Source: Escherichia coli
GTDB taxonomy: Bacteria; Pseudomonadota; Gammaproteobacteria; Enterobacterales; Enterobacteriaceae
NCBI RefSeq assembly: GCF_044324785.1
Contig: NZ_CP172127.1
DNA length: 64,000 bases
Reading direction: 5' to 3' (one strand)
Shown here in pieces: positions 10,179 to 10,209 of the stretch. Position numbers and translations under genes: made by a program. Under the pieces are notes generated by a model. The model did not search any database. It was not told the origin of the DNA and worked only from the letters and a program-made list of their open reading frames with translations. Position 1 is the first letter of the stretch. The number at the start of each line of letters is the position of its first letter.

Positions 10179-10209
10179 CCAGCCCGGTGCTTCGGACCCA
10201 CCGGGCTGG
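10179..10209 (+). other. GC-rich hairpin with C(UUCG)G tetraloop-like apex
   Basis: CCAGCCCGGTG (10179-10189) pairs with CACCGGGCTGG (10199-10209); loop CTTCGGACC; no U-tract after it. Confidence 0.45.

Follow-up and report, generated by a model that had tools for sequence, protein, structure and literature searches.

A conserved three-hairpin element upstream of a prophage DNA adenine methylase gene and its predicted antisense small RNA

The methylase locus and its three-hairpin element

The 64,000-nucleotide stretch of Escherichia coli DNA analyzed here (contig NZ_CP172127.1, hereafter the window) is a BcepMu-like transposable E. coli prophage, 97% identical to phage PhiKM and present in 555 of the 5426 complete E. 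coli genomes (~10%). Between its leftward lysis genes and its repressor/early region, it carries a gene for a D12-class N6-adenine DNA methyltransferase, annotated as DNA adenine methylase in RefSeq/GenBank relatives and called the methylase below. A conserved element of ~115 bp (10163-10279) lies to the left of this gene, and holin, transglycosylase, and structural genes are found on the minus strand to the left of the element. An earlier note on this DNA had drawn attention to a hairpin at 10179-10209, which proved to be one of three in the element and not a stand-alone structure. On the strength of sequence comparisons, we propose that a cis-antisense small RNA (sRNA) of ~98 nucleotides (nt) is encoded opposite the 5' leader of the methylase and that this hairpin is probably the stem of its Rho-independent terminator (features in Table 1).

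The hairpin is built on a perfect 11-bp inverted repeat, CCAGCCCGGTG and CACCGGGCTGG, with arms at 10179-10189 and 10199-10209, 9 nt apart. The pattern is unique in the window, with a chance expectation of 0. The 31-nt hairpin had a folding free energy of -21.8 kcal/mol on the plus strand (z = -4.70), which was equaled by none of 200 shuffles. The earlier note had described an 11-bp GC-rich stem and proposed RNA folding as a check, and the stem was indeed found to be stable; likewise, its estimate of ~105 bp to the methylase start agreed with the 105 nt that separate the end of the hairpin from the ATG at 10314. Its further proposal, a bulge of 3 nt and a C(UUCG)G apex, did not stand. Both the minimum-energy and the centroid structures left an open 9-nt loop without this apex. 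Among the sequences examined, the apex was limited to the window and two near-identical alleles, and every other relative had a different loop. In close relatives, the loop was replaced outright, by ACCCGAAA, CGGTAA, CGCGAA, or ACCCGAAC, and in distant ones it has 6 nt, for example CGGGAA, CUGUAA, or CGCAAA. Judged by these alleles, the UUCG cap is a non-conserved accident of the window copy. The stem, for its part, was kept through compensatory changes: its position 10 is T-A, C-G, or A-T, and its position 7 is C-G, C.A, or T-A among close relatives. As read from these comparisons, the hairpin is a real, selected RNA structure.

Searches for the element were carried out with a covariance model of its minus strand, R1. 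In the window, R1 gave a single match, at 10163-10279 on the minus strand (90.7 bits, E 2e-22). From 5' to 3', the predicted sRNA comprises hairpin H1, a linker, hairpin H2, the terminator hairpin H3, and a U-rich tail. H3 contains the repeat described above, and once extended by G.U pairs it folded at -30.0 kcal/mol on the minus strand. Nine of its 10 pairs were changed on both sides among homologues, and 94.2% of its cells were paired. The earlier note had stated that no U-tract follows the hairpin. This is true on the plus strand, but the minus-strand stem runs into a U-rich tail, the sequence directly after the extended H3 being GUUCUUUCAU. Four to seven U were found within the first 10 nt 3' of the H3 stem in 61 of 68 homologues, and a consensus scan also flagged a minus-strand terminator at the element. 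Its strength was predicted to be moderate because a C interrupts the U-tract. As for H1, its mean folding energy over the 68 homologues was -11.3 kcal/mol.

Table 1. Features of the methylase locus, in window coordinates
Feature	Position	Strand	Remarks
Predicted cis-antisense sRNA	10169-10266	-	~98 nt; H1, linker, H2, terminator H3, U-rich tail; ends predicted
U-rich tail	10166-10176	-	GUUCUUUCAUG, 3' of H3; plus-strand reading is purine-rich AAGAAGA
H3, terminator hairpin	10177-10211	-	contains the 10179-10209 repeat; 13-16 bp via G.U pairs
H2, central hairpin	10212-10242	-	GGUC-GGCUCACAG / CUGUGGGAC-GAU; ~11 bp; conserved G.U pairs; variable loop
H1, 5' hairpin region	10250-10272	-	around palindrome GTCTCGCGAGAC; structure kept, sequence variable, poorly aligned
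Predicted extended -10	10273-10281	-	TG (10281-10280), G, CAGGCT (10278 down to 10273)
Predicted -35	10295-10300	-	TTTACA; 5/6 consensus matches; 16-nt spacer
Methylase initiation region: Shine-Dalgarno (SD) sequence	10300-10303	+	AAGG
Methylase initiation region: anti-SD partner	10303-10311	+	GGCUUACAG
Methylase initiation region: start codon	10314-10316	+	ATG
Anti-SD segment of the methylase mRNA leader	10230-10238	+	CUGUGAGCC; within the sRNA target; minimum-energy fold
D12-class N6-adenine DNA methyltransferase gene	10314-11078	+	presumed regulated gene; Pfam PF02086, E 5.9e-29

Strand preference and the predicted promoter

The minus strand of the core gave the more stable fold in 23 of 26 sequences; mean energies were -55.8 kcal/mol for it and -45.5 for the plus strand, and the RNAalifold consensus reached -31.6 kcal/mol for the minus-strand alignment versus -13.3 for the plus. 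In 72 unique sequences, the pairs of the model were Watson-Crick in 1322 cases, G.U in 232, and A.C in 30; these counts come from an alignment fitted to the minus-strand model, and MAFFT-only alignments agreed in direction. Over 68 distinct homologues, 94.5% of cells were paired, as compared with 76.2% after shuffling and 26-49% with slid partners. Double changes affected 21 of 23 pairs (275 cells), a level that none of 500 shuffles reached. In H2, G.U pairs are present in 41-54 of the 68 sequences and would be A.C mismatches on the plus strand. Its pair 52-78 is U.G in 54 of them, its pair 43-85 is CG, UA, or GC, and its pairs 54-76 and 56-74 showed 21-22 double changes each, whereas on the plus strand only the top 5 bp of H2 are able to form. 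Likewise, the conserved segments AACCC and GAGCC pair on the minus strand only. Collectively, these alignments favor the minus strand as the folded strand of the element.

A predicted sigma-70 promoter precedes the predicted sRNA, whose start would lie at ~10266 and whose end at ~10169. The A(-11) and T(-7) of the -10 hexamer were invariant in 68 of 68 sequences (consensus T/C-A-R-R-M-T), and hexamers among homologues include TAGAAT, TAGGCT, CAGGCT, TAGACT, and TATACT, a region that reads AAGCCUA on the plus strand. In the window, the two invariant bases are 10277 and 10273, neither of them within the ribosome-binding site or coding sequence of the methylase. All 21 hexamers with an initial C (20 CAGGCT and 1 CAGTCT) are accompanied by TG at -15/-14, as opposed to 1 of 20 near-consensus TAGAAT hexamers. 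Such compensation of a weak hexamer by TG is the behavior of real promoters. The -35 of relatives is TTTGCA, TTTACA, TTTCCA, or TTTTCA, at 16-18 nt. Conservation of the -10 hexamer through pairing with the linker was rejected, no covariation being found. A second minus-strand promoter (-35 TTTTCA at 10320-10315, -10 TACAAT at 10298-10293) was not retained as the main one because its A(-11) is not conserved in relatives. We noticed that its -35 overlaps the methylase start codon and that some distant lineages have sites like it (TTGCCA/TAAACT, TTTTCA/TATTAT), with an unconserved -10 in others.

Because of the wobble asymmetry, the G.U-rich helix, the U-rich tail, and the conserved sigma-70 promoter, the hairpin is most likely an antisense terminator. 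The earlier note had suggested that the hairpin could act in RNA processing or stability, as a translational operator, or as a protein-binding site controlling the methylase; all of these are plus-strand roles and are disfavored by the same comparative evidence.

Association with phage methyltransferase genes

Homologues of the methylase were sought in viral contigs, which yielded 80 loci with 64-99% protein identity. Their methylase upstream regions have the same architecture with different sequence. On the plus strand, it begins with purine-rich AAGAAGA..GCGAC, a long hairpin, and AACCCACAG-N7-CUGUGAGCC, and it ends with CCAAGGC, a hairpin, and AAGCCUA. R1 found the element opposite the methylase strand in nearly all 80 loci. 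It was also found in front of the methylase in 12 named phages, and R1 scores were obtained for the cultured phages Burkholderia phiE125 (78.7 bits) and KS9 (77.0 bits), Acidovorax Aval (74.6 bits), Vibrio VP882 (71.0 bits), Ralstonia YO374_1 (65.9 bits), Shewanella MuM16-1 (61.8 bits), Pseudomonas B3 (48.1 bits), 'Microcystis' Mae-JY22 (46.5 bits), Halomonas phiHAP-1 (44.8 bits), Acinetobacter AM106 (34.6 bits), and Curvibacter TJ1 (29.6 bits). Homologous sites lie at L096 1349-1463 for VP882, L094 1349-1466 for B. thailandensis E264, and L097 1205-1320 for B3. In divergent relatives (Klebsiella phage KP12, Phi06_2974 B, and several E. coli prophages), homology to the window begins at ~10167, and the homologous block spans the hairpin up to the methylase start, the sequence farther upstream being unrelated. 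R1 did not find the element in phage Mu (best score 8 bits), in BcepMu, or in a 'Bacillus' phage with a homologous methylase. BcepMu has a lysis cassette and no methylase, other small genes filling the methylase slot.

The reverse search, with a DNA pattern derived from the RNA element, returned 29 loci. A D12 methylase stood in the expected place in 24 of them, a PF01555 methyltransferase in one, and one lay at a contig edge; the remaining three belong to one lineage and adjoin a tail-fiber-like gene. In one viral locus (L130, element at 818-937), the element directly precedes a methyltransferase of an unrelated family, PF01555 (N6_N4_Mtase), and in another (L045, element at 321-440) the order is element, Com, PF01555 methylase, and D12 methylase. 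Com homologues (PF10122) occur in further loci, and where one precedes the methylase, the order is element, com, methylase. With the exception of the one lineage, the element lies on the opposite strand, immediately before the gene that opens a methyltransferase, or com-methyltransferase, cassette. Judged by this distribution, it is a mobile module placed before phage DNA methyltransferase genes or com-methyltransferase operons. The earlier note had tied the hairpin to control of the methylase, and the fact that the element accompanies methylase genes across many phages speaks for that link.

We rejected the idea that the element is a functional replacement of Com because the two co-occur in many loci. 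In the window itself, no Com (PF10122) homologue was found, and the sole small open reading frame (ORF) with a CxxC...CxxC arrangement, at 16982-17176, was without match to that family. This ORF, on the plus strand in the early region, encodes 64 aa with two CxxC pairs, resembles a zinc ribbon, and matches phrog_3401; from its sequence, the product is a candidate small nucleic-acid-binding regulator.

The leader also varies among the E. coli copies of the prophage, with 2-3 copies in some E. coli genomes. A near-identical copy of the 208-nt leader interval (10123-10330) was present in only ~76 of the 555 records, and in 430 of them the interval is only 80-90% identical to the window, as against 95-99% identity across E. 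coli copies for the 1.7 kb around it. The differences cluster at the apex of H3, in the loop of H2, and in the linker, which suggests either that the loops are diversifying or that alleles have recombined. A motif at 10126-10142, TAAAC-N5-TTAA(C/T)AG, was kept in E. coli and Klebsiella relatives despite differing flanks and forms an imperfect dyad, TnAAC-N3-GTTnA, in several of them. Its distance from the sRNA terminator, on the right, varies between 25 and 45 bp, and it may bind a regulator or belong to a promoter of the methylase or of lysis genes.

No RNA feature is marked at the site in any of the annotated records that we inspected. In PhiKM (L001 3913-4767), the methylase start is annotated 90 nt upstream, which gives 284 aa and an overlap with the element, and in phage B3 (L097 1079-1304) two tiny ORFs, 45 and 46, are annotated over it. 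Tiny ORFs or extended methylase starts of this kind overlie the element in several genome records and are probably annotation artefacts. A small plus-strand ORF in the window (ATG at 10167, 22 codons) was rejected as coding because relatives differ by a frame-shifting 1-nt indel.

Possible action on methylase expression and related systems

If the sRNA is made, it would be fully complementary to the methylase leader from ~10169 to 10266. Pairing with the mRNA would probably start through the variable hairpin loops. In the reading that we prefer, the sRNA would prevent expression of a possibly harmful methylase up to the point where strong lytic transcription overcomes the block. Silencing would proceed by duplex formation, possibly with RNase III cleavage, plus promoter collision. 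The hairpin stem would also form in the mRNA leader, there as the mirror image of the target. Provided that the RNA exists, we give repression of the methylase an even chance of being its effect. Cis-antisense RNAs opposite 5' leaders mostly repress, and this usual behavior is one reason why repression was preferred. The other two are that modification enzymes at the mom position are harmful (PMC3299994, PMC3378877) and that the leftward momP2 promoter of Mu is active without the late activator (PMC4287176). Hia5 and Hin1523, which are non-specific adenine methylases, belong to the mom-position group (PMC3299994), and toxicity of the present methylase is inferred only from such relatives (PMC3299994).

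The mRNA leader would also mask its own ribosome-binding site (RBS), since CUGUGAGCC at 10230-10238 is predicted to pair with GGCUUACAG at 10303-10311. The latter overlaps the SD sequence and ends 3 nt short of the ATG, and the predicted helix has 9 bp. Across 26 lineages, 85.4% of the cells of this anti-SD:RBS helix were paired, as compared with 15-42% with slid partners, and the helix is specific to the plus strand because its wobbles are G.U only. Its covariation was modest (10 double-change cells, a level met by 1 of 500 shuffles). The duplex had a mean energy of -11.2 kcal/mol versus -5.2 with a shuffled RBS, and it was ~-15 to -17 kcal/mol for the E. coli type and for several independent lineages, as opposed to only -6.7 kcal/mol in the phiE125 group. 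The RBS region itself resembles the 5' arm of H2.

Several observations weigh against the antisense sRNA as set out above. Its promoter, start site, and 3' end are all predictions, the window has a weak -10 hexamer (CAGGCT), and a C breaks up the U-tract. In most sequences, the outer stem of H1 starts 1-3 nt after the -10 hexamer, which fits poorly with a start 7 nt downstream and suggests either that transcription begins elsewhere or that this stem is a feature of the plus-strand leader; the outer stem may precede the transcribed sequence. The alignment fitted to the minus strand favors that strand, even if MAFFT-only alignments point the same way, and G/U-rich strands fold better for compositional reasons. 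One lineage (L106, L107, L110) has the element beside a tail-fiber-like gene and not a methylase. Finally, blocking of the target shifted the predicted accessibility of the RBS only from 0.38 to 0.41, so that thermodynamics gives no basis for predicting the effect on regulation. Concerning that lineage, the L106 copy scored 53.9 bits, and the 679-aa ORF downstream of it has no Pfam match and was judged tail-fiber-like by its sequence; this copy may have been left behind when a methylase was lost, or it may have a different target.

A first alternative is that the same antisense sRNA, like an RNA version of Mu Com, promotes translation of the methylase. The sRNA segment GGCUCACAG, a mimic of the RBS region GGCUUACAG, would sequester the anti-SD at 10230-10238 and thereby free the RBS, an anti-antisense mechanism that we liken to DsrA-rpoS. 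Indeed, the anti-SD sits within the sRNA target, the RBS region and the 5' arm of H2 are alike across lineages and change together, and the anti-SD:RBS duplex is stronger not only than its shuffled counterpart but also than the sRNA:RBS duplex (-8.3 kcal/mol). Moreover, mimicry of the RBS would be needless for a purely repressive antisense RNA. Yet the accessibility of the RBS barely rose on blocking of the target and went down in some lineages, a second anti-SD-like AGCCU outside the sRNA target can substitute, and the anti-SD helix is weak in the phiE125 group, as given above. A constitutive-looking promoter would, in addition, favor methylase expression in lysogens, and repression is what most antisense RNAs in this position bring about. 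We consider activation unlikely.

Equally tentative is the idea that the sRNA and the methylase form a two-part switch, either with an activator that replaces or precedes Com or as a hok/sok-like addiction module. As an activator, the antisense RNA would capture an anti-SD that mimics its own H2 arm. As an addiction module, the pair would resemble a type I toxin-antitoxin system whose 'toxin' is a promiscuous DNA adenine methyltransferase. In both versions, the hypervariable loops would be specificity determinants that insulate co-resident prophages from one another. A two-part switch of this kind is not known to have been described for DNA methyltransferases. Text searches of the literature found no description of the present RNA.

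It is improbable that the element acts solely as a cis-regulatory leader on the plus strand, with no antisense RNA and with the hairpin as P1 of a 5' untranslated region that binds a protein or ligand or stabilizes the mRNA. The hairpin does fold on that strand too (-21.8 kcal/mol), the 201-nt leader has a z of -3.6, the anti-SD:RBS helix with its G.U wobbles is plus-specific, and in the many phages with plus-strand upstream genes a read-through mRNA would include the leader. However, a plus-strand reading of the structure has ~8 times as many A.C mismatches as G.U pairs, and AACCC and GAGCC find their partners only on the other strand. This explanation also leaves unexplained the purine-rich motif, AGCCUA with its two invariant bases, and the compensation between TG and hexamer, and no riboswitch or leader family of Rfam matched. 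A riboswitch-like P1-P2-P3 switch on the plus strand was abandoned as the main explanation after the strand tests, while the anti-SD:RBS helix was kept.

Most improbable of all is a leader or terminator of the leftward lysis and late operon, working by antitermination like lambda 6S/Q or put RNA, with the hairpin halting minus-strand transcription that would otherwise enter the holin and lysis genes on the left: these genes do run leftward on the minus strand in the window, and the holin gene directly adjoins the element in some E. coli relatives, but synteny largely refutes it, as many divergent phages have plus-strand leftward genes with the methylase last at the genome end, that is, at the mom position, and as BcepMu has the lysis cassette with neither methylase nor element. 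The element follows plus-strand Rz or tail genes in phiE125, KS9, VP882, B3, and phiHAP-1, and it therefore tracks the methylase and not the lysis genes.

As a cis-antisense sRNA, the predicted RNA can be compared with several known systems. The Rfam scan that the earlier note had proposed brought up no family above threshold at the hairpin or element; with Rfam 15, this held for the window (E <= 10) and for 17 divergent loci (E <= 1). A 'D12-methyl' RNA motif, if in Rfam, was without match. One likeness is to plasmid countertranscript RNAs (ctRNAs), as in RF00236 (ctRNA_pGA1). Both are, here as a prediction, short (~80-100 nt) cis-antisense RNAs opposite a 5' leader, with a small hairpin, a long GC-rich terminator hairpin, and a U tail; both have loops that differ among close relatives while stems are kept, and the target genes are alike in that their dosage must be limited. 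CopA of R1 and RNAIII of pIP501 are further plasmid ctRNAs. In two relatives, the minus strand could be aligned with RF00236 from end to end, but the scores (34.1 and 29.5 bits) were below the gathering threshold of 45 bits, and the window copy gave no match at E <= 10. Unlike ctRNAs, the element lies beside a phage methyltransferase cassette and not in the leader of a plasmid rep gene, it has an extra 5' hairpin, and its target leader has the RBS-mimic/anti-SD arrangement.

The com-mom region of Mu offers a second comparison. Control of mom there involves Com, a zinc-finger translational activator, and the divergent promoters momP1/momP2. In both cases, a DNA-modification gene whose untimely expression is, here presumably, harmful occupies the mom position of Mu-like phages, and a leftward promoter in the regulatory region, here a predicted one, faces away from the modification gene (PMC4287176, PMC3299994). 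An RNA structure around the start site blocks translation of mom and may do so for the methylase. Moreover, in many relatives, the element is directly upstream of a com homologue, itself followed by the methylase. In contrast, Mu is without the element and the window prophage without a Com homologue, the leftward promoter here is predicted to make a structured RNA with its own terminator, and the regulated enzyme is a D12 methyltransferase, not Mom.

In hok mRNA, the RBS is occluded intramolecularly, as would be that of the methylase mRNA. Restriction-modification and type I toxin-antitoxin systems, for which antisense RNAs have been reviewed (PMC3874152), also share with the present case a small antisense RNA paired with the gene of a DNA-modifying or toxic protein on a mobile element. 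They differ in that the element has no restriction partner or toxin peptide, and the RNA family is unrelated in sequence.

Lambda OOP, P22 sar, and P1/P7 c4 are the classical antisense RNAs of temperate phages, with cII and ant as targets. Like them, the predicted sRNA is short, ends with a terminator, and would exert post-transcriptional control of a neighboring gene; the targets are others, and these RNAs have no sequence or structural similarity to the element, c4 of Rfam not reaching threshold on the window or the divergent loci. The RNA of the element apparently represents a new family among the well-known cis-encoded antisense sRNAs. If expressed, it would be an unannotated and strongly conserved sRNA family in many beta- and gammaproteobacterial temperate phages, with the experimental models VP882, phiE125, and B3 among the carriers. 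Regulation of the DNA methyltransferases at the mom position, which has so far been discussed only in terms of Com, would gain an RNA layer, and the element would provide a compact natural case of an antisense RNA combined with an RBS-mimic leader.

Two further observations concern the neighbors of the methylase leader. To its left, two small annotated divergent genes, 9504-9908 (minus strand) and 9907-10122 (plus strand), have start codons that overlap by 2 nt (CATCATG), and each promoter must therefore lie within the other gene; their products belong to the phage families phrog_2266 and phrog_4490. To the right, between the convergent methylase and repressor genes, a strong terminator-like 11-bp hairpin, ACCGGAAAGCA..TGCTTTCCGGT, followed by a T-run, spans 11085-11109. 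From its sequence, it is probably the terminator of the repressor transcript and is perhaps bidirectional.

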